Of a stretch of 64,000 nucleotides of DNA, positions 3,342-57,357 are shown one piece after another; position 1 is the stretch's first letter; each line of letters begins with the position of its first letter. The notes below the pieces were generated by a model. That model had not been told where the DNA came from. It saw nothing but the letters and a program-made list of their open reading frames with translations, and did not search any database. Made by a program: the position numbers and the translations under genes. The DNA is from Bacteriovoracaceae bacterium (GTDB taxonomy: Bacteria; Bdellovibrionota; UBA1018): the NCBI GenBank assembly GCA_947447665.1, contig CANFJX010000002.1, positions 209,659-273,658 of the forward strand, written 5' to 3'.

Positions 3342-3698
3342 TCATGCTATTTTTGAATCTACAGGAGCAATTCCATATCCATTTAAACTTGCGTCCACTA
3401 GATGGAATATCGCCGCATCCAAGTCTGCAAATGTTTGTCTCCAGTGCTTACCGCCTCGCTCCGACAAAAAGACTTCAAAACCATCGTCGCACTTCATTAG
3501 GTAGTATGCTTTTTTGTCTCTTGGATCGCCATGCCATATTTGGTCAATTAAGTCGGCTCCGTTTCCACCTAATTTCTTGTATTCGGCAATTAGCCCTTGA
3601 ATTGAAATCCTGTCCAAAACATTAGAGCCATATTTGCTAAGCAATTCTTTCTTTTGAAGTCCATTCAAGACATCGACTAATAGACAATTTTGATTCAT
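3342..3698 (-). CDS. Small acidic cytoplasmic protein (118 aa from the M10 start), candidate immunity or partner protein
   Basis: The ORF track gives 3342-3725. An internal ATG at 3698-3696 overlaps the upstream TAA stop as TAATG, and a GGAGG motif lies 6 nt upstream. No signal peptide. The protein has balanced composition, unlike the antisense ORF 3344-3625. Confidence 0.55.
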   Translation of the reverse strand: MNQNCLLVDVLNGLQKKELLSKYGSNVLDRISIQGLIAEYKKLGGNGADLIDQIWHGDPRDKKAYYLMKCDDGFEVFLSERGGKHWRQTFADLDAAIFHLVDASLNGYGIAPVDSKIA

Positions 3699-5884
3699 TA
3701 GAAACCTCCGCCGTTGGTGATCCATGTTCTAGGGACGATTTTATTTACGTAGACTTGATGCCCACCACCCAGAATTTGTCCAACGGGTGTTGGGTTGTTA
3801 AATCTTCTTAGCGCAACTTCACCAACAACGCCTTCATAGAATTTCTCACCTGATGGTACAGTAATTTCAACCCATTTTTTTGCCGAATTACCCCAAGAGG
3901 GGTCCAAAGCAGAATCAAGGACAGCTTGATAGGGACCAGTGGGCTTTACATGAGACCAGTAGGCTGATAGTTCTTTGCCGTCAGTTGCATACACTCGATA
4001 CAGCTTTACTGGCTCTTTCGTCACAATCTCCAGATAGCTAGAACTTCTAAAGGCATCCGCTACCGTTCCCACACCCTCGGTTATTGCGTGGAGTGGACCA
4101 TGATTTATTGGATTAAACTTCTGTATACTCGCCGCAGAATCTAGCATTCTCTGCACCCCTTCAATGCCCTCACTCCTGAGAAGGGTTGAGGCAAGGTCGG
4201 GGGCTTGATCCGCCAGAGCGTTCAGGTTGGTTGCCGCTGCCGCGGTCAGAGACCCTGCACTGTCAGCGGCTAAAACCATTTCTTGAGCTGCAAAGCGATG
4301 AACGACCAGTTCTACCCCTTTTTTGAGAGCGACCTGAGTCTCTGCGGCTAGGGGACATCCGAAAATCAATCCAGTGAGATCAGCCGTGAGTTCTCCGATG
4401 ATTTCGCCTTGTGTTTCCTCATCAGAGTGGATGAACGATTGCCATTTTTCTCGGATCAGGCCTTGAACTCCACTCTGAGATTCCGTAATTGCCTTAACTC
4501 CCTCATAAATGACGTAACCCACCGCTCCAGCTGCTAGGGTGACCGTAACGGCAGGAGGCAAAATAGCTGCTGCAACGACCCCCGCCCCAACGAGCACCCC
4601 TCCTCGAAGAGCTCCCCGGGTAAATCCCTTCAGAGCATCCAAACAGGGCCTTAGCTCCGATAGGGTGTGCTTGAAAGCTGCTGAATGGCCGCTAGCTCCT
4701 AAACGATCCGCCAATAATAAGCCCACTTTCAGACTCTCGGTATGAGAGTTGAAAAAAGAGCATCCCTCAGTATCAATTGCCCCTAGGCCAGGACACTGAT
4801 CTTGGACCATGCTCTGAGCCACGATCACTGTATTTACCGCGGTCCTCACCTCAAAACCCTCGGAGCTTCTGAGAGAAGTAGTCAGCCGAAGGCCCGTGTA
4901 ATCGACTCCGGGTAAATTGTGAATCAGCCCTTGATCATTCAGGATCCCGCGATCGATGAGTTGTTTTTCGATATAGTATCCGGAATTTTGGGTCACCCCA
5001 TCCTTGCTGTTTAGAAATGACTGAATTTCAGACAAAGCCTCTTCGACTGCGTCTAAATGTCTGGAACGATCCGCCCCGCTGAGAGCCTCCACTAACTGGG
5101 TTACGCTCTCATTGAGAATATCTTTAGGATGAGTCGCTCGTTTTGGGTCAAAGCCTCGAGCCTCCTGTTGCCAGACTGAAGCAGCTAAATTCGCTGCCTG
5201 TGGGCGCCGCTCTTGGACGATTTGCTGCTGCCGTTCTTCCATCCTGTTTGAAAATCGAAGGTCCCCGAAATCTCCGGAGGGTGTAACTCCCCGAGGTATT
5301 CCACTTCCGCCTAAGCCTGAGCCAACTGGGGTCAAACTCGCCTTGATGCCTTCTGTGTTTGCTCGTTGCACTCGGTTTAGCTCTCTACTCCAACCCTCAC
5401 GAGCAGCGTGGGAAGCTACTGCACCCCATCCCGAAGTGTCTTGGGACGGAGGCGAGATCATCCCTCCGGCAGGAGCATCTGTCGATCCTTCGTTCGTGGG
5501 CGCAGTTTGTGCTGGCAAACCTGGAGCTAGATCACGCAAATCAAAGCTGGCAGGGATATTCTGCCGCAGAGGGGTAGACTCCCCTGTATGCCGCGGAATT
5601 TGTGGGTTGGTCAGGCAATGACTAAAATAGTGTTCGACGGTGATCGCTCCTTCAACGGAGCGATGCTGAACCGACTGCTCCCAGCAAACCCGATCCACGC
5701 CTCGAAAATCTACGGTCCTTGGATCTTGGATGTATTCCTTATCCCCTCCCCTTTCGATAAAATATCGAATATCATCCTCGACGGCGTGAGAGGGCAGACT
5801 CGATAATCCGAATGCGAGCATCAAAATCGATGTAATTGACAGAGGTGTTCTACTCTTCATTTTTTTGTAAATTTTAGCTACCAT
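3698..5884 (-). CDS. Secreted 728-aa protein with a signal peptide, a central glycine-zipper segment and a C-terminal domain of unknown function
   Basis: N-terminus MKSRTPLSITSILMLAFGLSSLPSHA is Sec-like. The central segment GALRGGVLVGAGVVAAAILPPAVTVTLAAGAVGYVIY is a glycine zipper. The C-terminal ~130 aa (LYRVYATDGKELSAYWSH...GGGHQVYV) matches no family I can name. Confidence 0.65.
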   Translation of the reverse strand: MVAKIYKKMKSRTPLSITSILMLAFGLSSLPSHAVEDDIRYFIERGGDKEYIQDPRTVDFRGVDRVCWEQSVQHRSVEGAITVEHYFSHCLTNPQIPRHTGESTPLRQNIPASFDLRDLAPGLPAQTAPTNEGSTDAPAGGMISPPSQDTSGWGAVASHAAREGWSRELNRVQRANTEGIKASLTPVGSGLGGSGIPRGVTPSGDFGDLRFSNRMEERQQQIVQERRPQAANLAASVWQQEARGFDPKRATHPKDILNESVTQLVEALSGADRSRHLDAVEEALSEIQSFLNSKDGVTQNSGYYIEKQLIDRGILNDQGLIHNLPGVDYTGLRLTTSLRSSEGFEVRTAVNTVIVAQSMVQDQCPGLGAIDTEGCSFFNSHTESLKVGLLLADRLGASGHSAAFKHTLSELRPCLDALKGFTRGALRGGVLVGAGVVAAAILPPAVTVTLAAGAVGYVIYEGVKAITESQSGVQGLIREKWQSFIHSDEETQGEIIGELTADLTGLIFGCPLAAETQVALKKGVELVVHRFAAQEMVLAADSAGSLTAAAATNLNALADQAPDLASTLLRSEGIEGVQRMLDSAASIQKFNPINHGPLHAITEGVGTVADAFRSSSYLEIVTKEPVKLYRVYATDGKELSAYWSHVKPTGPYQAVLDSALDPSWGNSAKKWVEITVPSGEKFYEGVVGEVALRRFNNPTPVGQILGGGHQVYVNKIVPRTWITNGGGF

Positions 5885-5919
5885 AAATAAAAATCCATAG
5901 ATAAACTGATTGTCCTGGC

Positions 5920-6867
5920 CTACATCTGTGTTCTTGCAAAATTAATCCCATCTTCATGAATTCGATCTAACTCCTCTTGAGTCATAGGGATCACTCCTAA
6001 TAACCCAGGTTCGCCAACTACATTTTGGAGCATGGGCCTAATGGTCTCCCAATTCGGTAGTGGATCTGGCTTAAAATTCGCGTGGAAAGATAAGATTTCC
6101 CAATATTTCCTCCAAACGCGCTTGATTGGTGGGGGCGAGTTCGTATGGAATGCTGTGATTGCTGTCATTAGCAGTAAGTTGACTTCTCCCAATTCCTCAC
6201 GCTTCAAGACGGATGTTAGAATTTTAAAGTCATCCACCATTCCAGCAATGTTAAAACCGGCTCGACCTAAAAATTTTCCACATGCGACACCCCGTAATCC
6301 TGTTTCTGTTCCATCACCTCGGGTCGACCTAATTCTCTGCTCTGCCATTCTTCGGACCAGCCTAAAGTCATGGCGATTCATCCGCTCTCTCTCAAGAGAC
6401 TCTGTCCTTAGGTTCTCAAAACGGATTAATTGTTGAATCGCAGGCGCAATCTCAATTGAGCAATTTTGAAATTGCTCCAGATTAAAAACAAGTCCTTCGG
6501 CTCTTGGAATTGTGACCGCTTTTTCACCTCTAGGAACTCGTCGAACTAACTCGAAGTTCCTGATTTCATTTCTTAGAATTCCAAAATGCCGGTCTGTGTC
6601 TCTGATGAGAGTAGCGCTTCCTTCTTTCCCTTCAGACATCAGGTGACTGAAAGACTTTGTTTGAGGCGAGGCAGATGGGGCAGGATGGATCCTTTCCGAC
6701 AAAACGGTGCCAGAATTAAGGGCATCGACGGACAAACCCAGAATAAAATGATCTGGCTCAGACCTGAAGGTTAACTGTTCAGTCACAACGCGATCTGCGT
6801 AACTAGAAAAAGCCTCGCCGAACAAAACAGCAGAACACATTAAAAATCTATTCAAGCTTTTAATCAT
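5920..6867 (-). CDS. Secreted hypothetical protein (315 aa)
   Basis: N-terminal hydrophobic signal MIKSLNRFLMCSAVLFGEAFSSYA. Tightly packed in the operon. Confidence 0.55.
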   Translation of the reverse strand: MIKSLNRFLMCSAVLFGEAFSSYADRVVTEQLTFRSEPDHFILGLSVDALNSGTVLSERIHPAPSASPQTKSFSHLMSEGKEGSATLIRDTDRHFGILRNEIRNFELVRRVPRGEKAVTIPRAEGLVFNLEQFQNCSIEIAPAIQQLIRFENLRTESLERERMNRHDFRLVRRMAEQRIRSTRGDGTETGLRGVACGKFLGRAGFNIAGMVDDFKILTSVLKREELGEVNLLLMTAITAFHTNSPPPIKRVWRKYWEILSFHANFKPDPLPNWETIRPMLQNVVGEPGLLGVIPMTQEELDRIHEDGINFARTQM

Positions 6868-6883
6868 ATTAAAACAAATTCTT

Positions 6884-8182
6884 TCATTGCAAGGCTCTTC
6901 CGATAAGCGATGGTTTTAATGACTCCCATGGATCACTCGTCAATCGCGAAAACAATGCGTCGCCAATCACGAGGCTAGTCCAAAAATTCTGCAAAACACT
7001 ACCTCTGTCGATCACTGGTTCCCGAAGTTGAAAAAAATAGGGGGCAATCCCCTGTTTAATGAAAAGAAAAGATGCTCTACTTTCCTGCTGACGAATCGAA
7101 TATGACTTATCTAGTTCTGTGAGAACAGCGTCCTCAAGGTGTGGGAAGTAAGAGTCCTCTAAATCACTCATCAGCTCACTCCATCGATTTTTTAAACCTT
7201 GCCAATCTCCCTTGATACTTTCCACATAGGCTACTACCTGATTCAGGTGCTCCGAGTTGAGCTCCAGTGCAGCTTGAATCTTAGGTTCGAACTCAGGAAG
7301 CAAAAAATCTTCGCAAACCGCAGTAATCAGTAAAAGTGCGCCTTCATCGATTGCACTTATGGCGCGGATCTGGTGTTGTCGAATCTCCTGAATCAGCTCC
7401 CACTGACGGCTGATCTTGCCCGATTCGATTGCAGAATCAATCGAGCTCCAAACAGCTAGAACCGCAACAGCCACGACTGCGCCTACTGGTCCAGCTGCAG
7501 AAGTCGCGACCAAACCCTTCAGTACTCCAAGTTTGACTGCAGTACCAGCGGCGGCACCGGCGAGTGATCCGACAACACCCTTCGCATTGGTTCCGCCCTG
7601 AGAATGAGCCTCGCCTGCCGAATCTATTGAGATGGTGCAATCTTCTTGTGGAGGCAGAAGAGCAGCTAGATTAGGCAGTACAAAGATCTTCTTAGGTTGA
7701 TTGCGATCGAGAGCCCACTGCAATCGGTCGTTTGCGCATCGGGTTTTCCAAAATTCGGAGATTGAACTCAGATCGCTTCTCACGTTTCGAAGCGTAACAA
7801 GCTCATCTTCGAGATCTTTTTGGATGAGGAGTATTTTTAATACACTTTCGGAGAAAGATGCAGGTGTAGCCCGCATGATTTCTTGCATTTTTAGATCCCA
7901 ATTATTTTTGAGCTGCTCAGATTTATTTGAGGCAGTCTCTTGCATTTCTAACAGGATCTGAAAGGCGTCCCAGTAGTCGGATAACCGCTGTAAGAAATGG
8001 GTCTTAATATCTGATTTAAACTTTTTATCTACGTAATCCTTGTAGCTAACTTTGGTCTCATGGAGAATTTCTGATAAGAGCGTAATATTATCATCTAATT
8101 TGTCGGCAAAGGCAGGGGTAATTGTGTTGGAATTTAATGAAATACAAATAAAAATTGCGATTATTTTGTTTTTATTTTTCAT
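6884..8182 (-). CDS. Secreted coiled-coil and glycine-zipper protein (432 aa), paralogous in its central domain to the 728-aa protein
   Basis: Signal peptide MKNKNKIIAIFICISLNSNTITPAFA. The glycine zipper GVVGSLAGAAAGTAVKLGVLKGLVATSAAGPVGAVVAVAVLAV is followed by ESGKISRQWELIQEI, to be compared with ESQSGVQGLIREKWQSF in the 728-aa protein. Confidence 0.6.
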   Translation of the reverse strand: MKNKNKIIAIFICISLNSNTITPAFADKLDDNITLLSEILHETKVSYKDYVDKKFKSDIKTHFLQRLSDYWDAFQILLEMQETASNKSEQLKNNWDLKMQEIMRATPASFSESVLKILLIQKDLEDELVTLRNVRSDLSSISEFWKTRCANDRLQWALDRNQPKKIFVLPNLAALLPPQEDCTISIDSAGEAHSQGGTNAKGVVGSLAGAAAGTAVKLGVLKGLVATSAAGPVGAVVAVAVLAVWSSIDSAIESGKISRQWELIQEIRQHQIRAISAIDEGALLLITAVCEDFLLPEFEPKIQAALELNSEHLNQVVAYVESIKGDWQGLKNRWSELMSDLEDSYFPHLEDAVLTELDKSYSIRQQESRASFLFIKQGIAPYFFQLREPVIDRGSVLQNFWTSLVIGDALFSRLTSDPWESLKPSLIGRALQ

Positions 8183-8188
8183 ATTTTT

Positions 8189-10162
8189 TTAATTTCCAGC
8201 CAAACTCGTCAATACACTGAGGTGGAGAGATAATCTCTGAATTGCGTCCTCTGGAGTAATCATTTTAAAACCGGTAATCACAGATGCGGGTGATACTAAT
8301 GCGGAATTGGGAATCAATTTCCTAACCTTTTCGATTTCGACTGTTTTCTGGTTTAAAAATAAAATATCAAAATTGGCATAAGCTGATTGGATAGCGATTA
8401 AATCTCCGAAAATTTTATCGAACCAGCCAAAAATATGAAAAAACCGGGATGAATGAGTCCGATCTAAAGCAACTCTTTCTGGATTTGGAGCCACCAGATC
8501 CGGAGATATGACTTCGGATCTGACATGATCTGGAACGGTTGAGTTGTAGCTTGGAAAGATATCATACTTAGCTTTTATGTTTTTAGGATCTCTCAAATCA
8601 GGATTGCCCAAGCAGACTGGGATCTCGAAATGACTTGTAAAATTAATAATTTGATCTTTAAGTCCTTCAGTTGCCTTGTTGTATTTTAAGCACTTTTGGA
8701 GTGATTGATGGAGACTCGATTTAAAAAAACTATCCACCTCGAACAGAGAGTCCTCCAATTGCTTTTTGATCAGCGTCAGATCGGGATGCGCATGATTAAT
8801 CTCTCGCATTGCCTCTAAAAGGGGTTCGGCTACCTGCAACAATTGATCACGCGAAACCACCGCACCTGGGACGTTTTCCTGTTCAGTAAGTGGCCGGACC
8901 AAGTGGCGGTCCCAAGCTTCAATCAAGGCTGCTCCCCGGGCCAGGAGGATGGGATTAATCTCCTCTGCAAGAAATTGAAGCTCTCCCGTAAAGATGTCAT
9001 CACTGTCTTTCCGAGAGAACAAATGGGTGATGCTTTCAGAAACGAGGAGCCGGAGAATCCGAGACCAGTGAAACTGAAACCAACTTCGAGCCACGTCAGT
9101 TCTCATCTGCTCCAACTCGTAAAAGTCTCGCACTACGGACCCTCGAGTTAACTCGAAACCCGCATCAAGGAAATTTTGATAGTATTCGTAATTTCCTGGC
9201 ACGGAAGGTCCAGGAGTACCGGACGGTCCTACCCCTAAACTCGAAGGGCTCGGGGTGCTAGAATCCACCTGACCACAGGCTCCTGGGCCCAGCTTCTTCG
9301 TGCCAAGGACTCGCCAACAAGAATCGCCGTCACCCCCTTGGCCAGGCCTTCCCTCGTCGCCCACTGGACCGCCTTCGCCTCCTGCTCCGCCTAATCCGGG
9401 AGAAGATTTTACGAAATTTAGCTGGAGCTCGCTTACGGTCTTTTTGGAAGTGAGAAAAACAATCGGAACTGAGCCACCACCCTTGCCTCCTGGGCCACCT
9501 TGGCCTCCCTGGCCTCTTTGTCCTGAATCGCCCCCATGGCCTGCTTCCCAGCTCCAAACAAGCCCAACCCAAGCCTTCTCGCCTCGGCCACCGGCGCCAC
9601 CGGTGCCACCCTTTCCACCGGTGCCACCTTGACCGCCTTTTTGTCCAGTTCCATCAATCGTTGGAGTTCCGATGACTTCAGCCGCAAAGACCAAAATCGG
9701 ACTTGGGGAGGCCTTTGCTGAAGGTCCAGTATATCCTGTGGCTCCAGTCCCTCCTACTCCCCCCTTTTCTCCATCATGCGTGCGCTCGCTTGATACATTC
9801 CTACAGGAATCACATCCAGTGGATCCTTGAACACCCACTGCAGGCATCAAATGGTTCCGCGCCATGGGGAGAGAATAAGCCTTAATCGTCGCGCCAGCCT
9901 TAAACTCAAGTCTGCGGGTATCGATCAGGAGCTGATGGCCCCGAGTCACAATGGTCCCATTAATGATGACTTCATCCGCTTTGATAACCGTGGGACCGGT
10001 CAAAACGTAAACTGGATTTCCCAATGTGACTCGATCATGCGACCTTCTCATTGCGCCTGAAAAATCTTCGAATTCGCTGGGGGGTGGCAGCTCAACACAC
10101 AACGCTTGATGTACCATTGTGAACCAAGCGCACGCCACCGTCCAAACGCTGAATTTACTCAC
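8189..10162 (-). CDS. Secreted bacterial collagen-like protein (657 aa): N-terminal beta-rich segment, several interrupted (G-X-Y)n runs, C-terminal helical domain
   Basis: Runs such as GEKGGVGGTGATGYTGPS, GQKGGQGGTGGKGGTGGAGGRGEK and GLGGAGGEGGPVGDEGRPGQGGDG keep Gly at every third position. The 8-bp start/stop overlap with the upstream gene is another sign of operon packing. Confidence 0.65.
   Translation of the reverse strand: MSKFSVWTVACAWFTMVHQALCVELPPPSEFEDFSGAMRRSHDRVTLGNPVYVLTGPTVIKADEVIINGTIVTRGHQLLIDTRRLEFKAGATIKAYSLPMARNHLMPAVGVQGSTGCDSCRNVSSERTHDGEKGGVGGTGATGYTGPSAKASPSPILVFAAEVIGTPTIDGTGQKGGQGGTGGKGGTGGAGGRGEKAWVGLVWSWEAGHGGDSGQRGQGGQGGPGGKGGGSVPIVFLTSKKTVSELQLNFVKSSPGLGGAGGEGGPVGDEGRPGQGGDGDSCWRVLGTKKLGPGACGQVDSSTPSPSSLGVGPSGTPGPSVPGNYEYYQNFLDAGFELTRGSVVRDFYELEQMRTDVARSWFQFHWSRILRLLVSESITHLFSRKDSDDIFTGELQFLAEEINPILLARGAALIEAWDRHLVRPLTEQENVPGAVVSRDQLLQVAEPLLEAMREINHAHPDLTLIKKQLEDSLFEVDSFFKSSLHQSLQKCLKYNKATEGLKDQIINFTSHFEIPVCLGNPDLRDPKNIKAKYDIFPSYNSTVPDHVRSEVISPDLVAPNPERVALDRTHSSRFFHIFGWFDKIFGDLIAIQSAYANFDILFLNQKTVEIEKVRKLIPNSALVSPASVITGFKMITPEDAIQRLSLHLSVLTSLAGN
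9170..9780 (-). repeat. Low-complexity GGN/ACC-rich coding repeats, e.g. ccaccggtgccacc units, that encode the collagen-like G-X-Y tracts
   Basis: The visible reiteration of ccaccggcgccaccggtgccaccctttccaccggtgccacc gives rise to spurious Pro-rich antisense ORFs. Confidence 0.6.
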
Positions 10163-12515
10163 TTTCGATCTCCTCTTGATTCTGGCTAAAACTGCCTAAG
10201 TCGCCCTTGGGTCCATCCGGATTCACAGGCCCTAGGGTTCCTGCTGGCAGCTCGAAGCTCCGCGTTTTAACTTGGGGTAAGATTTGGTGATCTAACAGGT
10301 CCTTGGCAGCTATTTGTTCCTGAAGAGCAAGAAGGGCTTGCTCGGCACGCGCACGAATACAATCTAAATTGATTCCTGGGCAAACTCGATTGAGTTTTTG
10401 AGCCTGTTGCGTGGGAGAGAGGTAGCTAAAGTCTTCCTTGATAAACACTTGAATTGTCGGATCCGTCTCAGACTTTCGTGTAGCCGACTCAAACAGGAGG
10501 CGTAGGTCATGAATAGATGGATTGTCTAAAAAATGATCGCCACTAGCGGTCGAAGCCTCAGCAGATCGCGATAAACTCCATCGCCTAGTAAATTGAATAA
10601 AAGTAGCTAAATCCAAGTCCGTAGCGTCGCCATCACCACCTCGTCGCGCAGGCACGGCCCTTTGTCCTGAACCACCTTGGCTCTCTAAGATAGGAAAAAA
10701 ATTCACTCGGGGCGCCTGGTCTGCCCCTCCAGGCCCAGGTCTCAATCTTACCCTGAGGCTACCACCAGAATAACCTTTCAAGGCTTTCGCAAGAGCAGCT
10801 CGACCCGGTTGGGCTTCTTTTTCGATCACATGGAGAACAAAATAATAGGTTCCCTGGCCCCTGGAGAAATCAGGATGGTTCACCTGGAAACCTACGATCA
10901 ACGGAAACGTGATCGCAGCATCTTCTTTTAGGGGACTCTCTGCGGGCAAGTCCGGATGCTTTAGGGCTGAGCTCAGATCAAATAAGGATCCATCGATTTG
11001 TGTAGTCACCCAATCTAAGCTCACATCAGGAGCGATGATAGCAGAGTCAAACGGCATATTCACTGTGGGTGTCTCTAGTTCAACCCGGGTCGGACCGACC
11101 GCTCCGTCAACAAAAGTGCAACCGCGCTCTTCTATTAGATGGGCTAAGTCTGCGGCATTTCCGACTGAAATTCTCCTTGAGGGAATACCAGCAGCATCCA
11201 GCGCACCACAAAACGATTGAATGGAAGCAGTCGTTGGGTGGAGATAGGCATTCAGTCGAAAGGTTAAAATTCGGTCAAGCAGAGTCAAGCTTGCAGGGAC
11301 CGGTAAAACGGGGACAGAGGCTAGTTCAGGAAATGCTACACTGGGCATGACTCGCTGAATTCTCAGTCGAAACCACATTGCATCCAACGATTGATGCGTA
11401 TATCCGCTGGGTAAGCTCTCCAAAAACTCAGAAATCGGCTGATTACTTCTCTGTAGTTCAGTCTCATAGCGTCGGTACAAGTCCTCAATCCAAGCAAGAG
11501 CGTGAACTGATGAATGGACAGGACTCAGTTTTCTCTCGATCTCTCGCAAGTCCATAAGTAAATTCCATCCCAGTCGAAGTTTGGAATATACCTGCTCTTT
11601 TTCAGTAGGTTCTCTTCCTCGATTCTGGAGTAGTTCAGAAAAAAAGGCCTGCTTCAGTCGATCGAGAAATTCGTTCAGTTGATCTTGTCTTAGGTTTAGA
11701 AAAATAGACTCGCTCGAACTCATGAAAAGTTGTATTAAATTGGAGAATCTAAATTTATTCAAAAGTAAGTTAAATGTTTCTGGGCTTTTAATGATGGAAT
11801 CAAGAGTCCTGTTTAGAAAATGAACATGCCCCAATTTTTTTAGATGAAATTGGACCAGTGAAATGACAAGAGAACTATTAGGGTTCTCTTCGGAAAGCAG
11901 GGACTCGACTACTTTTTGCCAAGTTGGAGCTGAAAAAATTCCAATCAACTCTCGCCAGTTAAGATTTTGATTCAGCTTTGATTCTTCAGTCAATAATTCT
12001 GCCAAATAGGTGGAATTCTCAAGAAGATCGATTGGATCCTGTTGACGGACTAATTGAGTGTTCAGCTCGGATAGAATTGCGCTCAGCGCATCAGGTGATA
12101 GAGGCGTGGTACATTTCTTAAGTGGCTTTAATAAGTAAGCTAGACCGTGAGCATGAGTGCGAGCAACCTCTCCAAAGGATTGGAAATGCTCGATTTGGCA
12201 AGAAATCGAATGTAATTGAAAAAGTTTATCTCGATTGTCGGGCTCAAGCTGGTCTAAAATATTTCTACTTAGAACCTCGCCCCAGAACTTAGACCACCCA
12301 AAGTCTGCTGGAATACTTTTTTTAATTCTGTCTAATGCTTGTGATCTCTCTTGGTTATTGGAGGCTTTTCTTAAAATATAGATTGCAGTATCTGCATTGA
12401 ATGTAGGGTGCACGCTGACGCCAACTAAGCCACGGCTGCAGCTAGTGGCAAAAAAAAGCGTTAGAACACATGGATAAATCAGCTGAAACAATGTAGTTTT
12501 TAAATCCATTTTCAT
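10155..12515 (-). CDS. Large secreted or lipoprotein-like hypothetical protein (786 aa), first gene of the operon
   Basis: N-terminus MKMDLKTTLFQLIYPCVLTLFFATSCS is a signal peptide with a possible lipobox. The rest is mostly helical with no recognisable catalytic motif. Confidence 0.6.
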   Translation of the reverse strand: MKMDLKTTLFQLIYPCVLTLFFATSCSRGLVGVSVHPTFNADTAIYILRKASNNQERSQALDRIKKSIPADFGWSKFWGEVLSRNILDQLEPDNRDKLFQLHSISCQIEHFQSFGEVARTHAHGLAYLLKPLKKCTTPLSPDALSAILSELNTQLVRQQDPIDLLENSTYLAELLTEESKLNQNLNWRELIGIFSAPTWQKVVESLLSEENPNSSLVISLVQFHLKKLGHVHFLNRTLDSIIKSPETFNLLLNKFRFSNLIQLFMSSSESIFLNLRQDQLNEFLDRLKQAFFSELLQNRGREPTEKEQVYSKLRLGWNLLMDLREIERKLSPVHSSVHALAWIEDLYRRYETELQRSNQPISEFLESLPSGYTHQSLDAMWFRLRIQRVMPSVAFPELASVPVLPVPASLTLLDRILTFRLNAYLHPTTASIQSFCGALDAAGIPSRRISVGNAADLAHLIEERGCTFVDGAVGPTRVELETPTVNMPFDSAIIAPDVSLDWVTTQIDGSLFDLSSALKHPDLPAESPLKEDAAITFPLIVGFQVNHPDFSRGQGTYYFVLHVIEKEAQPGRAALAKALKGYSGGSLRVRLRPGPGGADQAPRVNFFPILESQGGSGQRAVPARRGGDGDATDLDLATFIQFTRRWSLSRSAEASTASGDHFLDNPSIHDLRLLFESATRKSETDPTIQVFIKEDFSYLSPTQQAQKLNRVCPGINLDCIRARAEQALLALQEQIAAKDLLDHQILPQVKTRSFELPAGTLGPVNPDGPKGDLGSFSQNQEEIESE

Positions 12516-12596: not shown

Positions 12597-13304
12597 ATGA
12601 GAATTTTTAAACGAATTAATTCGAGTGAAAGCATGAAGATTTTTATTTTCATAATATTTTGCACCATTCTTGGTCCAGTAGTCCAAGCCGAAGACCTACC
12701 TGTTGCAATTAATTTAAACGAAGAGATTCCACAGAAGCTGATCTATGGCGATGTTTTTATTGGGCAAAGCATTGAACCTAACCAGCATAAACTTAACTCT
12801 TACATTCAGTATAGTTCAGGTACTAACAGTCCCCAGTACTCGCTCACAGGTGCTAATTTAGGTTCAGATTATTGGCTTCTAAATTCACTTATGGTTGGTA
12901 TGAGTCTAAATTACTATTCAAGTTCTCCACTTTTACTTCAAGAAGTTCTCAGTAATGAACTCCGACTCAATGCAGTTTCACTTAAATATTACAGCCCAAA
13001 ATTCGGAATCTACGCCCATTTGGGGTATGTCCCACTTCAGGGGATCTTCAATCTATTTGAGAAGTTTGTAATTAAATCGAGTCTCATTGTGGGACTCGGT
13101 TTAGGGACGACCCAATATAGTGATCACGCATTTTATCCAGGCATAAAGATCTTTATCGAAGAAAGACTCCTTCTCTACAAAACATTTGGAATTAGCTTGG
13201 GTATTACGCATTTCTGGGAAGGAAACCATCCTCAACTGGAATCTCAAAATACTCATTGGTTAAGCAGGGATCAAGTGGTTTCGGGGGTCTACCTTGAACT
13301 CTAG
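12597..13304 (+). CDS. Small secreted protein, probably an outer-membrane beta-barrel (235 aa; the start may be the internal Met at 12633)
   Basis: Signal peptide MKIFIFIIFCTILGPVVQA. Alternating hydrophobic pattern. It is divergent from the secreted operon across an AT-rich intergenic region. Confidence 0.5.
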   Translation: MRIFKRINSSESMKIFIFIIFCTILGPVVQAEDLPVAINLNEEIPQKLIYGDVFIGQSIEPNQHKLNSYIQYSSGTNSPQYSLTGANLGSDYWLLNSLMVGMSLNYYSSSPLLLQEVLSNELRLNAVSLKYYSPKFGIYAHLGYVPLQGIFNLFEKFVIKSSLIVGLGLGTTQYSDHAFYPGIKIFIEERLLLYKTFGISLGITHFWEGNHPQLESQNTHWLSRDQVVSGVYLEL

Positions 13305-13818
13305 AATTAAAACCACTTTAACCTTAGGGCTGACTGCATTCTTTCTTCTCGGGGCGCTAGACGGCTTTTCCTCCCAAGAAAGGGCCAACTTAGACCTGGG
13401 TCGCCTCATGAATGCCCAAAAGAAAAGCTACCTAGAAAGGAATTGGGATGCATTTTTTGGGACTGCTCAAGTGTATCGGCTCGCTTGGTGGAACGAGGTT
13501 CCATCCGTGACGCTGATCGCCCTCGAAGCTCTGGCGCTCGCTCGTCATTGCCGATATGCAGAGGCTGAATTGCTCATTGCCACCTTGGGTTCTCATTCAA
13601 GCGCCCGACGTGGTGAAACGGAGGCCATCCAGCAAGTCAAACACCTTCTGACTTCTGTTAAAAAGTTAGGCATCCAGGCACAAGAGAATTCCTCTCTCCA
13701 TATCTCGTCGAGAGCTAATCCCGAAGTATTTTGGCCGATCCAAAACTTATCACTTTGGAAGCGTTTACCGCCCACTTCCTTCCGTGTGCATATGGAGAGT
13801 AAATGTCGTTTAGAATGA
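13294..13818 (+). CDS. Secreted helical-repeat (TPR-like) protein, 174 aa
   Basis: Signal peptide MNSRIKTTLTLGLTAFFLLGALDG. Overlaps both neighbours. Confidence 0.5.
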   Translation: MNSRIKTTLTLGLTAFFLLGALDGFSSQERANLDLGRLMNAQKKSYLERNWDAFFGTAQVYRLAWWNEVPSVTLIALEALALARHCRYAEAELLIATLGSHSSARRGETEAIQQVKHLLTSVKKLGIQAQENSSLHISSRANPEVFWPIQNLSLWKRLPPTSFRVHMESKCRLE

Positions 13819-15773
13819 ATCTCATTCGATTGGCTCCTCTAGTGTTCGGCGCCTTTTCTCCGGCCTGGGGAGTCGCTCTCCCTTCGGTGGATGACGTCCG
13901 CCCTCCGGTCAAGGCGTCAGACACGATCTCATCAGCTTCCGCCCTTCTGGCGGCAGGGGAGCCAGAGCAGGCGATTACCATTTTAAGGGCGATTTTTTCT
14001 TCCAAAAGGGCAGGAGACATTCGGTTTAATGCGGCTCTTCTTTTGGCTTCATTTGGCCCAGGCACGAGTGCCTTCCCTGATCGTGCCGTTTATGCAGAAT
14101 TTGTTCTGAGTCATCCTCTGGCTGTCAGCAGGTTAAAAAATTCAGATCGAATTCGACTCCTCAGGAGCGCAGGACTCGGTTGGTTTAGTTTGGCGAGATG
14201 GCCCGAGGCCTCCCTCTCGTTCGAAAAGCTGCGGAACCTCGGAGGACCTGACGATGGCTCCCTCTCCGAGCTTCATCTCGGCTGGATTGAGTTGAACCAA
14301 AAGAATCCAAAGCTAGCTCTGCAGCGTTGGTTAAGTTTTCTCGGTCATCACCAGCATGAGGTCGATCAACCATGGGGACCCACGCTCATCCGGGACCTGG
14401 GTCATGTCTGGATTGAAGCTGGAGGGTTCCCGCCCGAGGTTGGTGAGCAAATCGACCGACTCATCCAAAGTCATGATGAACTCAAATATTTCCGGGAGGG
14501 GATGTCACAAGGACTAGGTTTGATTCCTTTGGATTCTCCCACATGGGCCAGTTTTCGGGGCTCAGCATTAAAAACTCGTATGAGTCGCCACCTAGCGGAT
14601 TTACTCCTCAAAAACCCTGAGGCAATCGAGTCACATCCCTGTGAAATCTTAGACTGGATCAAGCAGGACGGCTCCATCGGAGGCGGCGAAACTCAGGGTC
14701 AATTATTTGTCTCGCTCCAGAACTGCTTAAAGTCCCCTGGGATTACCGAAGGGGAAAATCGCAAAGTACTACTCACTTTATTGCATCCATGGATGTCTCA
14801 CCTCAGGAAGAGCTCGGGCATTTCGATTGAGGATCGGAGATTCGCTCTTCTTCATATTTTTTATCTTCAAAATGAACCAGACCTCAAAAAGAGGCAGGAG
14901 TGGTTAGAGAAATTTTACCCCAGCCCATCGGAAGTCAAAATCCTTAAGAATGGCCCAGTAGCTCTCCTGTGGTTGGAGGTTCTGCAAAGGCGCGCACATG
15001 ACGAAGATACTTCAATGATCAGAAAGTCATGGATTGATAATTTTTTAGAGAATCCGAGTCAATTTGAATTTGTACCCATACCTCCAGATGACCTCACACT
15101 CATTGCCTTGCAAATCAGTCAACAAGAACAAGTTTGGCTCCCGATCTGGAATTATCTCAATCGACTTGGGACAAAGATTTTCACTTCAGAAAGGGTTTTG
15201 GGATCACTTCACGTTTGGCTAACTAGCTTCATTTCACGTGCATTCTTGGACGGAAGCCTTCCGCCTGAGCCGTCAGTTGAATCGATTACTCAACCCTATT
15301 TTAATATCGTTCGATTTTTTATCTATTTGGAAAATCAATTTAACCAAAGTTTACAGCCCAGTGTTGAGTCTGACTTAGTTGGAGCATCCTGCCTAAAGGA
15401 TCATCTTAACGCTCAATTTAACACTCAATCTAGTCCGATATTTTCGGCCTACCATAGTACACGCGATGGCATAACTAGTTTAAAATCTGCATTAAAAATA
15501 AAAATCAAATTAGAATCTTCGCACTTCTTTAGCGACTTAAAAAAGCAAATAAGTTTCATCAAAAGTGGCTCATTATTTCTAAGAAAGGCTGGAATTTTAT
15601 TTCCGCCTGTCAAGCAAACCATGGCGAAAGTGTCAAATCTATATATTGACTCAATTCGATCTAACATTCAAGCGATAGAAGCACCCAATGAGTGGTCAGT
15701 GCCTGATCAAGAATCTTGGCGTGCCCAAAGGAAGCAGATTGCAGATGGCCTAAACGAGTGGAGAGCTGAATGA
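13803..15773 (+). CDS. Secreted 656-aa protein with an N-terminal TPR-like region
   Basis: Signal peptide MSFRMNLIRLAPLVFGAFSPAWG. The helical-repeat N-terminus includes AITILRAIFSSKRAGDIRFNAALLLASFG. Confidence 0.55.
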   Translation: MSFRMNLIRLAPLVFGAFSPAWGVALPSVDDVRPPVKASDTISSASALLAAGEPEQAITILRAIFSSKRAGDIRFNAALLLASFGPGTSAFPDRAVYAEFVLSHPLAVSRLKNSDRIRLLRSAGLGWFSLARWPEASLSFEKLRNLGGPDDGSLSELHLGWIELNQKNPKLALQRWLSFLGHHQHEVDQPWGPTLIRDLGHVWIEAGGFPPEVGEQIDRLIQSHDELKYFREGMSQGLGLIPLDSPTWASFRGSALKTRMSRHLADLLLKNPEAIESHPCEILDWIKQDGSIGGGETQGQLFVSLQNCLKSPGITEGENRKVLLTLLHPWMSHLRKSSGISIEDRRFALLHIFYLQNEPDLKKRQEWLEKFYPSPSEVKILKNGPVALLWLEVLQRRAHDEDTSMIRKSWIDNFLENPSQFEFVPIPPDDLTLIALQISQQEQVWLPIWNYLNRLGTKIFTSERVLGSLHVWLTSFISRAFLDGSLPPEPSVESITQPYFNIVRFFIYLENQFNQSLQPSVESDLVGASCLKDHLNAQFNTQSSPIFSAYHSTRDGITSLKSALKIKIKLESSHFFSDLKKQISFIKSGSLFLRKAGILFPPVKQTMAKVSNLYIDSIRSNIQAIEAPNEWSVPDQESWRAQRKQIADGLNEWRAE

Positions 15774-16036
15774 AAATTCTATCGAAAATGGCGATTATTT
15801 TCGTACTTTTTGTCTGCACAGCTGGACTGGTAATCCAAACCAAGGCTCAACCGCCTCAAGAAGAGGTTGACCTAGGGATCCTATCGGTTGAAGGCAGCAT
15901 TCGCTACCCAAGTTTCCAGGTGATCGAAAACCCTGAAACCCTCAGGAAGGTAACTCGCGAAGCATTGGGCCGTGAGCTGACTAGAATTGAGGAAGAAGTA
16001 CTCAGGTCTTGCGGGAGTGAAAATGAAACTGAATAG
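15770..16036 (+). CDS. Small secreted protein (88 aa)
   Basis: ATGA overlap with the upstream gene. Hydrophobic N-terminus MKILSKMAIIFVLFVCTAGLVIQT. Confidence 0.4.
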   Translation: MKILSKMAIIFVLFVCTAGLVIQTKAQPPQEEVDLGILSVEGSIRYPSFQVIENPETLRKVTREALGRELTRIEEEVLRSCGSENETE

Positions 16037-17120
16037 CCTTACTCAGATCTTTGCTCCCTGCCAAATTAGGGATAACCTTCGACTGAGCGTGGTGCCGCAG
16101 TCATTACTCCAGTCTCCCCCTCCCTTCGAGGCGAAGATGTCTCGAAACGGGCTTGAGATCCAGATCAAATCTTCTGACTCCCTTAAGGTCGTCAAAGCTG
16201 GGGTCGTCATTTATGACGGTAGACAGCTGATTTTTGAATCTAATTCTAATTTTCGAATTTTTGGAAGTTACGAGGACACTCTCGTGATTTCAAATCACTT
16301 CGGAGACTCATGGACTGTGTCGTTTAAATACGAAATGGCTTCGCCAGATGACCAGCAAGCGGGGATGTTTGCAAAATCATTTTTCGAGTCAGGCATGGCA
16401 CATTTGCTCCTCGTGATCCTGATAGCAGGGGCAATTTACGCCCAGAGCATACCCCTCCAACGATCGTCACCTCTCGACTCATCTTTAGGCCTCCGAATAG
16501 AAAGTAGAAATTCTGAGGCACCTTTAATTACATTTACGCCGTTTTCTGGGATGAGTCTGCGTGAATTTGAAATGCCAGAGTCATCGGAGCATTCAAATAC
16601 GAAGCGGACGTTTCAGCCTTTGAAGGCCCTTGGAAAAACGGCCTCATTTCTCAAATCATTCTTCGGCGGGAAGGCGAATCAGGCCCTCGAGATTACGTCA
16701 GGCCGATCCGCTTTGAGTGCAGTCGAGACAGCAAAAATTGACACCAGTCGACTGCTCGAGTCCACCCTAAAAAGGGACAACAGAATAGCCGGGGGCTCCG
16801 AGCAATTGGCAGCTCGAGCTAAGTCAAACGAACGAGAAAATAAATTAAGGCAAAAACTAGAGTCACTCAAACCAAAATTGACTGAAGCATTCGATCAAGC
16901 GGTTCGAATGGATCCGGCATTTTCTGTGAGTGTAACTATCGAGGGCTTGGTAAATAGTCGTGGACGGCTGTCCAGCGTCGAGCTCAAGTCTAGAGGTCAT
17001 TCTACTCCCCTGGCGCTAGCTGCCTTCGAAAGGCAAATCAGAAATATTCTTGAATCAGTAGAAATAGGCAATGAATTCTCAGGGCTCAAGTTACGAACGG
17101 AACATGTTTTTATCAAGTAG
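15987..17120 (+). CDS. TonB C-terminal-domain protein with atypical topology: about 125 aa come before the single TM helix (the start may be the ATG at 16023)
   Basis: TM segment MAHLLLVILIAGAIYAQSI at about residue 125. The C-terminus SVSVTIEGLVNSRGRLSSVELKSRGHSTPLALAAFERQIRNILESVEIG resembles the TonB-C fold signature. ExbB and ExbD genes lie directly downstream. Confidence 0.55.
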   Translation: MRKKYSGLAGVKMKLNSLTQIFAPCQIRDNLRLSVVPQSLLQSPPPFEAKMSRNGLEIQIKSSDSLKVVKAGVVIYDGRQLIFESNSNFRIFGSYEDTLVISNHFGDSWTVSFKYEMASPDDQQAGMFAKSFFESGMAHLLLVILIAGAIYAQSIPLQRSSPLDSSLGLRIESRNSEAPLITFTPFSGMSLREFEMPESSEHSNTKRTFQPLKALGKTASFLKSFFGGKANQALEITSGRSALSAVETAKIDTSRLLESTLKRDNRIAGGSEQLAARAKSNERENKLRQKLESLKPKLTEAFDQAVRMDPAFSVSVTIEGLVNSRGRLSSVELKSRGHSTPLALAAFERQIRNILESVEIGNEFSGLKLRTEHVFIK

Positions 17121-17150
17121 GAATAATTATTTTAGGAGGACAGTAATTTT

Positions 17151-17795
17151 ATGATTAAGACGTTGTTTGATATTTTTCTTTTTTTGGGATCTGAGTGGGT
17201 TTTGTGGATTTTGGGAGGTTGTAGCCTTCTTTGTATTGCAGTGATTTTTGATCGTAGACGGGCGATTAGCGCTCAGGATCGGGTTGGAGAGAGGCTTTGG
17301 GCGGGTGCACTAAGAGTTTGGGTTACGGATCAGGTTCCTGCCGACTGGGCACTTCAGGCACCTGAGTTTTTGAAGCGGTATCCTTGCGTAGAAGCTAGGC
17401 TCCTCAACTCGTTAGCCAATCGAAATCGTATCACTACCGGTGATATTGAAAAGATCAGCCTAAGTGTTTTAGCCGCCGAAAGATTAGAGTTAGAACGAAA
17501 CCTGGCAATCCTAGGTACCCTTGGAAATTCTGCCCCATTTATCGGTCTTTTTGGAACCGTTCTGGGAATTATCAAGGCTTTTTCGCAACTCGATCAGGCC
17601 GCCAGCGGAAGCGGACTTAATTCAGTGAGCGGTGGCCTAGCTGAGGCGTTGGTCACGACCGCGGCAGGCCTTTTAGTTGCCCTTCCGAGTGCGATAGCAT
17701 TCAATTACTTTCAGCGTAAAATAAAAGCGATTTTCTCTAGATCCATGAGCATAGCTGGTGCAGTGGGCTCAAGCCACAAAGAGGAGCGAATATGA
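17151..17795 (+). CDS. exbB: MotA/TolQ/ExbB-family proton channel
   Basis: 214 aa, three TM segments. Motif GTLGNSAPFIGLFGTVLGIIKAF is typical of ExbB/TolQ. Confidence 0.85.
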   Translation: MIKTLFDIFLFLGSEWVLWILGGCSLLCIAVIFDRRRAISAQDRVGERLWAGALRVWVTDQVPADWALQAPEFLKRYPCVEARLLNSLANRNRITTGDIEKISLSVLAAERLELERNLAILGTLGNSAPFIGLFGTVLGIIKAFSQLDQAASGSGLNSVSGGLAEALVTTAAGLLVALPSAIAFNYFQRKIKAIFSRSMSIAGAVGSSHKEERI

Positions 17796-18202
17796 ATGTA
17801 CATGATTTAGAGTCTGATGGACTCATCACTGAGATCAATGTCACACCCTTTGTCGATGTAGTATTAGTGCTACTCATCCTCTTCATGCTCGCAGCCCCGG
17901 CAGTCTACCAGTCAGCGCTTAAAGTAAAATTGCCTACTGTCACTTCTGCGAGTAAGGTGAAGCATGTCACACTTCATTTTTTTGTGAGTTCCAAAGGGGA
18001 GATTCAGGTGGATCGCGAGAGGATCCAAGCCCACGCAGTTGAGGCGCTTGTGAAGCGCGCAATTTCAATCGATCCAAACGCTGACGCGATGATCTCAGCA
18101 GATAAAAGCGTCGCCCATGGCAACGTAATTGAGATCATTGACCTGATCAAGACGAGTGGAATTCATGAAGTGGCTTTGGCGGCCACTGAGAGAAAGATTT
18201 AG
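17792..18202 (+). CDS. exbD: ExbD/TolR-family biopolymer transport protein
   Basis: 136 aa. The single TM helix carries the conserved Asp (PFVDVVLVLLILF). ATGA overlap with exbB. Confidence 0.85.
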   Translation: MNVHDLESDGLITEINVTPFVDVVLVLLILFMLAAPAVYQSALKVKLPTVTSASKVKHVTLHFFVSSKGEIQVDRERIQAHAVEALVKRAISIDPNADAMISADKSVAHGNVIEIIDLIKTSGIHEVALAATERKI

Positions 18203-34904: not shown

Positions 34905-36731
34905 ATGCATATGGGGAGAGGGTGGCTTGGTTTTACTATAATTTTTGTTTTTCACTCTTTTTTCGGAACAATCGGGAATGCTGCGAGTAAAAAACCAAGA
35001 TTAATTACTGAGTTTGCTGATTTCACTCCTGGACAAAAAGAAGATCAAGTTCGATCAAAAATTGAGTTTCTAGATGGCGGACAAACCCGAAAGATCAGTA
35101 TCGCTGATCTTTCGGTTCCAGACGCGGTGAGCGGTTGCCCCGTTGACACCATGCCGATGGAGCTTTCGCTCATGATTTCTCAACTCACTAATAAAGTGGG
35201 TGCTCTGGTTCAAAAAATGGCTGATGATCAAGCGGATCATTGCTCCGCCCTCAGCTCTCGGCTGAAGGCCACCCAAAGTCAGGTAGGCACAGCGTTTCAA
35301 TATCGACTCGTTGCGGGTGGTCCCATTACTTCAGGTGCTAGCCAGGACATAATCAACCAACAGACTCAGCAGGCCAGTGCAGTCAATCAAATGATCCTCA
35401 CTACTTCTGACATTCTTCAAAACTGCGTGTCTCGAGAAACTTTAGGAGATCAGCAGGTCATCCAAAAGCTGATAGCTCAAATTGTGACGTTGACTGGGCT
35501 TTTTATGGGGGGATGGCAAGGTATCGCAATCGCTACAGGCGGACAGATTATCGGAGCCATTCCGTTGTTTACGGGAGATCTTGAAAATGCTCTGAAGCAG
35601 TTTAAGCGCTTCGATCAGATGGGCGAACGAGGGTCTTTTTTGTGCTATCTCAGGCAAATCCGAAAAACCTCTTGTCTCCTTTTTGCAAATGAAGATGATC
35701 AATTTATTAATGGTCTAGATCTTTCATTTAATACAGGACCAGTTCATACGACGATTGAGTCGATTGAAAAATTTAAGAAAGAAGCACCTCAAGCTGTCAG
35801 TGATCTTGAGATGCTTCGGAAAATAAAAGCTCAGAGTGATGATTTTATGACCACATTCACTCAAATCGAGGCTCAGGCTAATCGAGTCAATAACCCAAAC
35901 TTATCTCCTCTCCTCAAGGCTACCTTAGACCAAATGAACGCATTTTGTCATGAGGTGGCGCCGCTTCACGATCTGAGCGATCCAAGGATTTTCAACGAAG
36001 TCATTCAAACAGAAATTCGTGAGATGAGTAAAGTTTGTTCTCATGAAACTCAGCTGATTTCTCTCTCGTTTAGTCAGATATCAAATTTTTATTGGCAAAT
36101 CTATTCGCTGAGCTCTTTTTATCAAGAGATCATTAAAGACGAATCGACTGAAATTGGAAAAATCGGACGAACCATTGAATCGATGAAGTACTTCGAGGGA
36201 CTTAAGAAATCTGTCACACAATACGCAGATTCAAACGCAGGAAATCAGAACCGAATGCAATTTCTTGATCTCAGTCGTCAATTGAGTAAAAAGCTTGGAG
36301 TGAGTACTTTTAAAAAGTTATTCAAAGATGATTTTGAAAAATTTTTACGGTCTGAATCTATGATTCAGGGGTGCTATTATAGTGATGCTGCTCATGAGCC
36401 TAGCGAACACGGCGATGTGCGGGGTCGAGCCCTGCGAGCGATGATTGATCTCTGCATGACTTTTGATCCGACTTTGACTTGCATGGACGTAGGTAATCCT
36501 AAAAAGGATCCCCTTTTCAAAACCTGGATTCAGCACTGTGTAGGTCCAGAATCTAATCTCTGCCGAGATTCCCTCAGGCGGCGTGAGAGAGCCATTTTCT
36601 TAAAGGACCAGCGCTATCGAACCTACTTTGATTCACTCTGTGGCCCTGAGGAAAAAATTGAACCAGACCTAAGGCTACCGCCCGGCCTACCTAATCAGGA
36701 GAGTGCTCCGGGGGCAATTCACGCAGGCTAA
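34905..36731 (+). CDS. Secreted hypothetical protein (608 aa)
   Basis: Hydrophobic N-terminus GWLGFTIIFVFHSFFGTIGNA. Largely helical. Its 3' end overlaps the recombinase gene convergently by 41 nt. Confidence 0.5.
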   Translation: MHMGRGWLGFTIIFVFHSFFGTIGNAASKKPRLITEFADFTPGQKEDQVRSKIEFLDGGQTRKISIADLSVPDAVSGCPVDTMPMELSLMISQLTNKVGALVQKMADDQADHCSALSSRLKATQSQVGTAFQYRLVAGGPITSGASQDIINQQTQQASAVNQMILTTSDILQNCVSRETLGDQQVIQKLIAQIVTLTGLFMGGWQGIAIATGGQIIGAIPLFTGDLENALKQFKRFDQMGERGSFLCYLRQIRKTSCLLFANEDDQFINGLDLSFNTGPVHTTIESIEKFKKEAPQAVSDLEMLRKIKAQSDDFMTTFTQIEAQANRVNNPNLSPLLKATLDQMNAFCHEVAPLHDLSDPRIFNEVIQTEIREMSKVCSHETQLISLSFSQISNFYWQIYSLSSFYQEIIKDESTEIGKIGRTIESMKYFEGLKKSVTQYADSNAGNQNRMQFLDLSRQLSKKLGVSTFKKLFKDDFEKFLRSESMIQGCYYSDAAHEPSEHGDVRGRALRAMIDLCMTFDPTLTCMDVGNPKKDPLFKTWIQHCVGPESNLCRDSLRRRERAIFLKDQRYRTYFDSLCGPEEKIEPDLRLPPGLPNQESAPGAIHAG

Positions 36732-54208: not shown

Positions 54209-54211
54209 GGC

Positions 54212-57319: not shown

Positions 57320-57357
57320 GTTTTAACCTTCCCTAGAGTGAATGAGAGAGACGGGTC

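Follow-up and report, generated by a model that had tools for sequence, protein, structure and literature searches.

A Gly-Gly-X repeat protein of Bdellovibrionota as a candidate intramolecular polyproline-II bundle

What does a bacterial protein become when glycine recurs at every third residue of its middle region: a collagen-like fibre, a flexible spacer or a compact fold? The question is raised by gene B, which encodes a glycine-rich protein of 657 amino acids (aa) on the minus strand of a 64,000-nucleotide (nt) stretch of a Bacteriovoracaceae bacterium genome (contig CANFJX010000002.1, positions 209,659 to 273,658; hereafter the window), and which an earlier note on this DNA had taken for a collagen-like protein resembling trimeric fibres, with a length that could vary between strains. 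Here we show that the glycine runs of gene B are short, fixed in length and mostly of the Gly-Gly-X (GGX) type, for which reason a compact bundle of polyproline-II (PPII) helices is favoured over a length-variable collagen fibre. The collagen reading is corrected on solid grounds; the PPII-bundle reading that replaces it is well motivated, and draws on structure prediction. We propose, at a probability of about 0.6, that gene B encodes a Sec-exported protein in which a single-chain GGX PPII bundle is combined with a β-helix-like base and a helical C terminus, and that this protein works with the products of four neighbouring genes, A, C, D and E. If this is true, a large bacterial family that Pfam leaves unannotated, with long, length-invariant GGX segments, widens the PPII-bundle class, and annotation pipelines as well as human readers mislabel such proteins as collagen-like; if gene B is instead a short interrupted collagen, the finding is an ordinary one.

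Folded glycine-rich PPII bundles are rare and are of interest to protein design. Solved structures exist for only about six natural kinds (antifreeze proteins, Obg, carboxylases, a phage adhesin tip and ALK/LTK; bioRxiv 10.1101/2023.11.25.568672). One glycine in three leads to the collagen triple helix (GXX), two in three, as in (Pro-Gly-Gly)n and the snow-flea antifreeze protein, to two-layer PPII sheets with glycine inside, and all-glycine sequence to a honeycomb as in ALK (bioRxiv 10.1101/2023.11.25.568672). A 2026 predictor paper equates GXX with collagen and GGX with glycine-rich PPII bundles, and gives PPII helix lengths of 4–11 residues in sfAFP (the antifreeze protein of the snow flea), the adhesin gp38 of phage S16 and ALK (PMC13243192). 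The structural class is already known, then, whereas we found no description of the gene B family, its architecture or its operon in the family libraries and literature searched: the PPII-bundle reviews searched contain no bacterial example of this kind, and the literature search returned no paper mentioning DUF7932, a domain to which some relatives are fused.

Glycine runs of constant length

Four G-x-x runs of at least six triplets punctuate gene B, at residues 131–148 (run 1, six triplets), 173–196, 208–231 and 256–279 (runs 2–4, eight triplets each), and two more, at residues 110–118 and 312–320, reach just three triplets. The periodicity described in the earlier note is confirmed, although its count of at least five runs of 6–8 triplets was too high; the string quoted there (GQK GGQ GGT GGK GGT GGA GGR GEK) is exact and occupies residues 173–196. 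The pattern is not due to chance: shuffling the glycine-rich region (29% Gly) 20,000 times never produced at least four runs of at least six triplets, and of 20,000 whole-protein shuffles only 20 contained any run of that length.

A glycine period of three implies, as far as sequence can tell, a backbone of polyproline-II type, one that collagen chains also use. With collagen-like proteins (PF01391; Streptococcus Scl1/Scl2, Bacillus BclA, phage tail fibres) gene B further shares non-collagen flanks and a probable secretion, and some of its distant relatives are automatically annotated as collagen-like. A true bacterial collagen-like protein would here trimerize through the C-terminal helical domain, whose long helices could make a coiled-coil unit, and would form short interrupted triple helices displayed as a surface fibre in the manner of BclA, Scl or phage fibres. 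Glycine at each third residue of four runs fits such a protein, run 4 of the family is rich in collagen-looking G-[DE]-P triplets, and both the distant relative P0009 and the top match in BFVD, a library of predicted viral protein structures, bear a collagen-type annotation. The composition of the runs argues otherwise. Characterized bacterial collagens hold tens of G-X-Y triplets, whereas the runs of gene B never exceed eight and are split by folded segments. Scored as collagen triplets, as the earlier note had suggested, gene B has no match to the Pfam Collagen profile of 20 consecutive G-X-Y triplets (PF01391; hmmscan, E ≤ 1), and P0009 is likewise unmatched. About 63% of the triplets in gene B have a second glycine (GGX); across the 30 triplets of the four runs, glycine fills 30% of X and 33% of Y positions and proline only 10% and 3%, respectively. 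Glycine at X or Y destabilizes triple helices in host–guest peptide studies, and a triple helix does not require both glycines of each GG doublet to be conserved.

In an alignment of 71 full-length family members, one representative per cluster at 50% identity, the three core runs (runs 2–4) have no gaps and an insertion in at most one sequence. In these runs conservation of the first glycine of a triplet is 99% or more; the second, adjacent glycine is conserved to 61–93% in run 2 and to 61–100% across runs 2 and 3, with the gap-free doublet positions of run 3 at glycine frequencies of 0.72–1.00, and run 4 combines an invariant glycine at each third residue with Gly or Pro just before it. The remaining position of the triplet varies and is polar (K, Q, R, D, T or E). 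The longest run has a mode of eight triplets and a range of 7–11 among the 71 members, and measures eight triplets in 130 and nine in 47 of more than 200 retrieved relatives. Four near-identical copies of gene B from different assemblies, a small sample of close strains, have identical repeats and are set apart by one substitution and the called start (642 versus 657 aa). Variation in length, which the earlier note had thought possible between strains, was thus seen neither in these copies nor, as indels of the core runs, in the family at large.

Its accompanying premise of slippage-prone, reiterated DNA holds in part. Repetition exists, with the 14-mer ccaccggtgccacc present three times at up to two mismatches, but it is short, imperfect and weak, and Tandem Repeats Finder reports only periods of 9 or 18 nt in 2–5 copies at 75–80% match. 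Because the core runs are fixed in length and their glycine doublets are conserved, a stalk evolving by slippage is disfavoured; the alignment has instead the look of a structural element of defined geometry.

Predicted fold of the glycine-rich region

We modelled gene B as a monomer with AlphaFold2, from a 51-row alignment, both at full length and as residues 43–330 alone. The predicted secondary structure supports the layout sketched in the earlier note: a β-rich N terminus, a glycine-periodic middle and a helical C terminus. The mean predicted local distance difference test score (pLDDT) is 71.5 for the full-length model and 88.2 for residues 43–330, the latter with a predicted template modelling (pTM) score of 0.79. 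In both models confidence peaks in the glycine runs (pLDDT 91–96), which are assigned to neither helix nor strand.

The N-terminal strands (44–47, 51–53, 58–67, 70–72, 78–87 and 92–94) are predicted at a pLDDT of 91–97. Strands 58–67, 78–87, 156–164, 234–238 and 325–329 alternate with the glycine runs, and a small β hairpin (198–199/204–205) links runs 2 and 3 in the model; from this arrangement we infer that the glycine segments would run successively up and down, anchored on a β-helix-like base. Around the strand at 156–164, the residues P153, G165 and G173 are invariant, and 66 of the 71 members have Q at position 174. Conservation extends into the C-terminal domain (F364-H365 within FHW-R, R368, W417, C491 and C517), of which the tail, residues 531–657, is poorly predicted. 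The mature protein holds six cysteines (117, 120, 282, 296, 491 and 517); C491 and C517 are invariant among 15 relatives and a cysteine near 282–284 is almost invariant, a pattern consistent with residence in an oxidizing compartment.

The models bear on three alternatives. Because residues 43–330 give a confident, compact model as a monomer, partner chains may well not be needed, and this counts against collagen, as does the lack of any collagen entry among the 44 matches returned when Foldseek compared the 43–330 model with the PDB. The collagen-like trimeric fibre has thus lost its footing on several sides at once, with no PF01391 match, no run beyond eight triplets, conserved GG doublets and a confident monomeric fold, and we consider it improbable that gene B is a true collagen.

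A flexible low-complexity spacer, or a phase-separating elastic region, would dispense with a defined tertiary structure altogether. The low-complexity composition of the segments would suit it, DSSP assigns the runs no regular secondary structure, and a phmmer search of gene B against PDB sequences matches only artificial GGS linkers. Disordered linkers accept indels and substitutions, however, whereas here the run lengths are invariant and the glycine columns are 92–100% conserved at an overall identity of 25–35%; the runs, moreover, are the most confidently modelled part of the protein, and conserved β strands and cysteine residues are interleaved with them. We regard a spacer as very unlikely.

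Nor do we give much credence to a glycine-rich β-solenoid or β-roll, whether RTX-like or antifreeze-like, in which glycines would make the turns and calcium might be bound. The N-terminal part does resemble β-helix rungs, and the non-significant matches that make up the remainder of the Foldseek list against the PDB are β-helix and β-roll proteins, including EtpA, Ag43, pectate lyases and RTX block V. Every one of these β-helix matches lies at E > 0.2, however, and AlphaFold2 places no strands within the runs. Gene B also lacks the RTX nonapeptide GGxGxDxUx: its period is 3 and not 9, there is no conserved Asp and Pfam offers no match.

Searched against the PDB at full length, the gene B model matches nothing significantly; the top entry, the ClyA pore (E = 0.068, probability 0.21), is too weak to support a ClyA-type toxin.

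Reading frame, start and export signal

Relatives at 25–35% identity align with gene B from the signal peptide through to the C terminus. The frame is therefore right and a frame error is ruled out, and the coordinates and frame given in the earlier note stand. Four public assemblies include gene calls for an identical protein. The public starts of gene B differ (10115–10162), giving 657 aa from a GTG or 642 aa from an ATG at M16. The shorter calls, which would drop the signal-peptide segment, are probably truncated, because the GTG is preceded by a strong Shine–Dalgarno site (AAGAGGAG) and restores the signal peptide seen in the homologues. With the GTG as start, gene B shares 8 nt with the 3′ end of gene A, which lies upstream.

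A hydrophobic N-terminal segment is present in 65 of the 71 family members and the mature start, xELxPPP, lines up across the homologues. Judged from these features, gene B probably carries a Sec signal peptide and would hence be exported from the cytoplasm. On the opposite strand, two open reading frames (ORFs) at 9300..9632 (110 aa; Pro-rich, …PPSPPAPPNPG…) and 9536..9721 (61 aa) are antisense shadows of the GGN codons and not genes.

A polyproline-II bundle as the favoured reading

We compared gene B with the PPII-bundle domains of springtail and snow-flea antifreeze proteins (2PNE, 3BOG and 7JJV), the phage S16 gp38 adhesin tip (6F45), the ALK/LTK glycine-rich domain, the Obg N-terminal domain and the predicted PE_PGRS domains. 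Like them, it has GGX-type runs split by short turns or loops (four runs and a fifth, irregular segment, mostly GGX or [G/P]GX), a predicted single-chain intramolecular fold, variable exposed third residues and nearby cysteines capable of forming disulfides. In the Foldseek search of the 43–330 model, only 7jjv (E = 2.2e-5) and 2pne (E = 9.5e-4) fall below E = 1e-3, and the next match, 3bog (E = 7e-3), is of the same kind; the three are antifreeze proteins of springtails or snow fleas, built as intramolecular PPII bundles. Unlike the known domains, the runs of gene B are 24 residues long and interleaved with the strands of a β-helix-like base, and the module has a large helical C-terminal domain as its fusion partner. 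No sequence homology links it to the solved members sfAFP, gp38, ALK/LTK and Obg (phmmer against PDB sequences; Pfam), such that any tie is one of structural analogy.

On the favoured reading, gene B would be exported through Sec to the envelope or to the outside of the cell. Its four to five fixed-length segments of Gly-Gly-X or (Gly or Pro)-Gly-X would fold back within one chain as antiparallel polyproline-II helices of the polyglycine-II type, a geometry that we take from the repeat pattern and the models. Their glycine faces would pack on each other and on the small β-helix-like base, with the variable polar third residue exposed to solvent, and the outcome would be a flat or rod-like surface bearing variable polar residues. 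The C-terminal helical domain would then tie this rigid module into an envelope complex with A, C, D and E, four probably co-transcribed proteins that would be secreted or membrane-bound. As known PPII bundles serve in ice binding, phage receptor binding and, in ALK, cytokine binding, the most probable function, by analogy, would be that of a rigid recognition (binding) face or scaffold.

Several points weigh against this proposal. At 24 residues, an eight-triplet run is 2–3 times as long as the PPII helices of solved bundles (4–11 residues), and the runs may for that reason be kinked, their geometry may differ or the bundle may be an unusually long rod; unkinked, and at 3.1 Å per residue, it would measure about 70 Å. 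The template modelling (TM) scores of the Foldseek matches to antifreeze proteins are very low (0.07–0.23, with probabilities of 0.06–0.10), and the matches may for that reason indicate only a local backbone state and a glycine-rich composition and not a superposable fold. In BFVD, the best match is a phage protein annotated as a collagen triple helix repeat (E = 1.4e-10, TM 0.21), followed at TM scores of about 0.2 by a Mimivirus protein and a DUF7932 protein. Repeats can make AlphaFold2 overconfident, and just 51 rows entered the alignment used here. Finally, all five members of the operon, gene B included, are without a function assignable from library matches.

A bolder version of the proposal, which we think rather unlikely but worth stating, is that the β + GGX module represents an undescribed and widespread bacterial family of PPII bundles with 24-residue (about 70 Å) helices that form a monomeric rod, and that in Bdellovibrionota it has been recruited, together with a helical C terminus, into a lineage-specific five-protein envelope apparatus, sometimes beside a TonB/ExbBD-like energizer, perhaps with a role at the cell surface such as prey contact or entry.

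Spread of the module

Among 1.84 billion cluster representatives (clusters at 50% identity), a profile search retrieved 2,153 proteins at E ≤ 1e-3, of which 107 lie at E ≤ 1e-30. The whole profile is spanned by roughly the first 80–100 matches, and the others cover only the β + GGX module, at positions of about 45–310. Every named full-length member comes from the metagenome-assembled genome (MAG) of an uncultured member of Bdellovibrionota, labelled Bacteriovorax sp., Bdellovibrionales bacterium, Bdellovibrionia bacterium, Oligoflexia bacterium or uncultured Bdellovibrio.

Many of the other relatives, secreted and about 300 aa long, comprise the module alone, with a GQxGGxGGxGG... motif and the same run lengths. 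Some module proteins are fused to DUF7932, including giant-virus proteins (Terrestrivirus), and a Mimivirus protein is also matched. Such stand-alone or DUF7932-fused proteins (P0018–P0047; P0075 from Bacillus cereus; P0048/P0055; the Terrestrivirus DUF7932 protein) are homologous to gene B over residues of about 45–310, with profile E values down to 1e-22, but, unlike gene B, have neither the C-terminal helical domain nor the five-gene operon. Of those module-bearing relatives that were scanned with Pfam, none has a model covering the β + GGX module.

The stand-alone module sits in unrelated genomic contexts, namely within a three-gene operon of a Dongiaceae MAG, on a Bacillus cereus mobile element and as a lone gene of a Rhodobacter MAG. 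In the second of these, a Bacillus cereus-type contig (L010), the 301-aa module protein (6001–6906) lies in a mobile element together with integrase, FtsK and Alp7A-like genes. The location in a mobile element and the giant-virus DUF7932 fusions suggest that the module has spread horizontally. BLASTP found no similarity between the operon partners A and C and the genes that flank the stand-alone module in the Dongiaceae locus.

Other searches added little. A scan of genome contigs with the single gene B protein found no relative, and when a five-sequence alignment served as query, a single locus came up, from an uncultured Bdellovibrio MAG; a word-index search with a 15-sequence profile returned only six proteins that were already known, probably through saturation by glycine-rich words.

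A conserved five-gene operon

Gene B is the second of five same-strand genes, A-B-C-D-E, that are tightly spaced or overlapping, and the proteins of all five have signal-like or hydrophobic N termini (Table 1). The same order, with similar sizes and at about 20–35% identity, recurs in six independent loci: the window and five others (L003, L004, L005/L006, a JGI contig and L007, the last from an uncultured Bdellovibrio MAG), whose homologues stand at about 30% identity. None of the five proteins has a match in Pfam (searched at E ≤ 1 for gene B), NCBIfam or PADLOC. PDB sequence searches with B and E, the two proteins compared, found no relative, and neither E nor a four-sequence E profile gave anything below E = 0.1. 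We take these genes for an apparently undescribed envelope set of Bdellovibrionota: five conserved, probably co-transcribed and secreted proteins without a recognizable domain would amount to an unexplored envelope system in a phylum known for predators.

Two more specific assignments were considered. The idea of C and E as ClyA/Hbl-like pore formers was abandoned because orthologues of C do not conserve its hydrophobic centre. A resemblance of the C-terminal ~140 aa of E (3698–4120, minus strand; …LYRVYATDGKELSAYW…GQILGGGHQVYV…) to TNT-like NADases, which are NAD-glycohydrolase toxins, is no more than an unverified lead: Pfam gave nothing at E ≤ 10 on the isolated domain, and PDB sequences gave nothing. 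The E orthologues have …IPGGRTxGGAREW…, with …GGAREW… where E has …GQILGGGHQVYV. Protein A, for its part, has short glycine-rich patches at residues ~600–630 and 755–775 (…ESQGGSGQRAVPARRGGDGD…, …GPVNPDGPKGDLG…).

Table 1 Coordinates of the operon, the parts of gene B and other features in the window
Feature	Position	Strand	Remarks
Gene A, 786 aa	10155..12515	−	Hydrophobic N-terminal segment ending …FATSC (…FFATSC, possible lipobox/lipoprotein); no family match
Shine–Dalgarno site of gene B	10170..10177	−	AAGAGGAG, 7 nt upstream of the GTG; sequence read directly
Gene B, 657-aa glycine-rich protein	8189..10162	−	GTG start; stop codon 8189–8191; ORF list and full-length homologues
Probable Sec signal peptide, residues 1–22	10097..10162	−	Hydrophobic core VWTVACAWFTMV; probable cleavage before VELPPP
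N-terminal β-strand domain, residues 43–95	9878..10036	−	β-helix-like rungs; conserved motif DEvxLnGxivTnGhxLxID
Glycine run 1, residues 131–148	9719..9772	−	6 triplets, G-x-x type; pLDDT ~95
Conserved strand ILVFAAEVI, residues 156–164	9671..9697	−	AlphaFold2; followed by an I-D-G-T-G-Q motif that opens run 2
Glycine run 2, residues 173–196	9575..9646	−	8 triplets, GGX; pLDDT 91–96, no helix or strand
Glycine run 3, residues 208–231	9470..9541	−	8 triplets; seven conserved GG doublets, 210/211 to 228/229; pLDDT 92–95
Glycine run 4, residues 256–279	9326..9397	−	8 triplets, [G/P]-G-X type; pLDDT 88–96
Less regular Gly/Pro-rich segment, residues 297–320	9203..9274	−	G297, G312 and G315 conserved; holds the three-triplet run 312–320; pLDDT 73–90
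C-terminal helical domain, residues 348–657	8192..9121	−	Four long helices in 348–499 (AlphaFold2)
Gene C, 432 aa	6884..8182	−	Signal-like N terminus, central Gly/Ala-rich hydrophobic stretch; no family match
Gene D, 315 aa	5920..6867	−	No family match
Gene E, 728 aa	3698..5884	−	Signal-like N terminus, central hydrophobic segment, C-terminal globular domain; no family match
Five-gene operon A-B-C-D-E	3698–12515	−	
Divergent gene set beside the operon	12597–18202	+	Order: 235-aa possible outer-membrane β-barrel, then others, ExbB, ExbD
Tyrosine recombinase/integrase gene	36691–38076	−	
RND efflux operon	51122–58791	−	Two AcrB-type pumps and OEP
tRNA gene	59110–59191	+	Beside an NHL-repeat protein gene

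Neighbouring genes and the rest of the window

Upstream of the operon, here as in the closer relatives, lies a divergent gene set whose first product, a possible outer-membrane β-barrel, matches TIGR04565 at E = 6e-5, below the cut-off. Proteins of 174, 656 and 88 aa in this set have no match in Pfam or NCBIfam, the C terminus of a 377-aa transmembrane protein is TonB-like by eye, and the set ends with ExbB (PF01618) and ExbD (a precomputed call). Similar divergent neighbours occur at L003, L004 and L007 but not at L005, and a functional link of the set to the operon is possible.

Elsewhere, the window has the ordinary content of a diderm chromosome, including succinate dehydrogenase, an RND efflux pump with OEP and an integrase. 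The sole match in an Rfam scan of the window is one tRNA.

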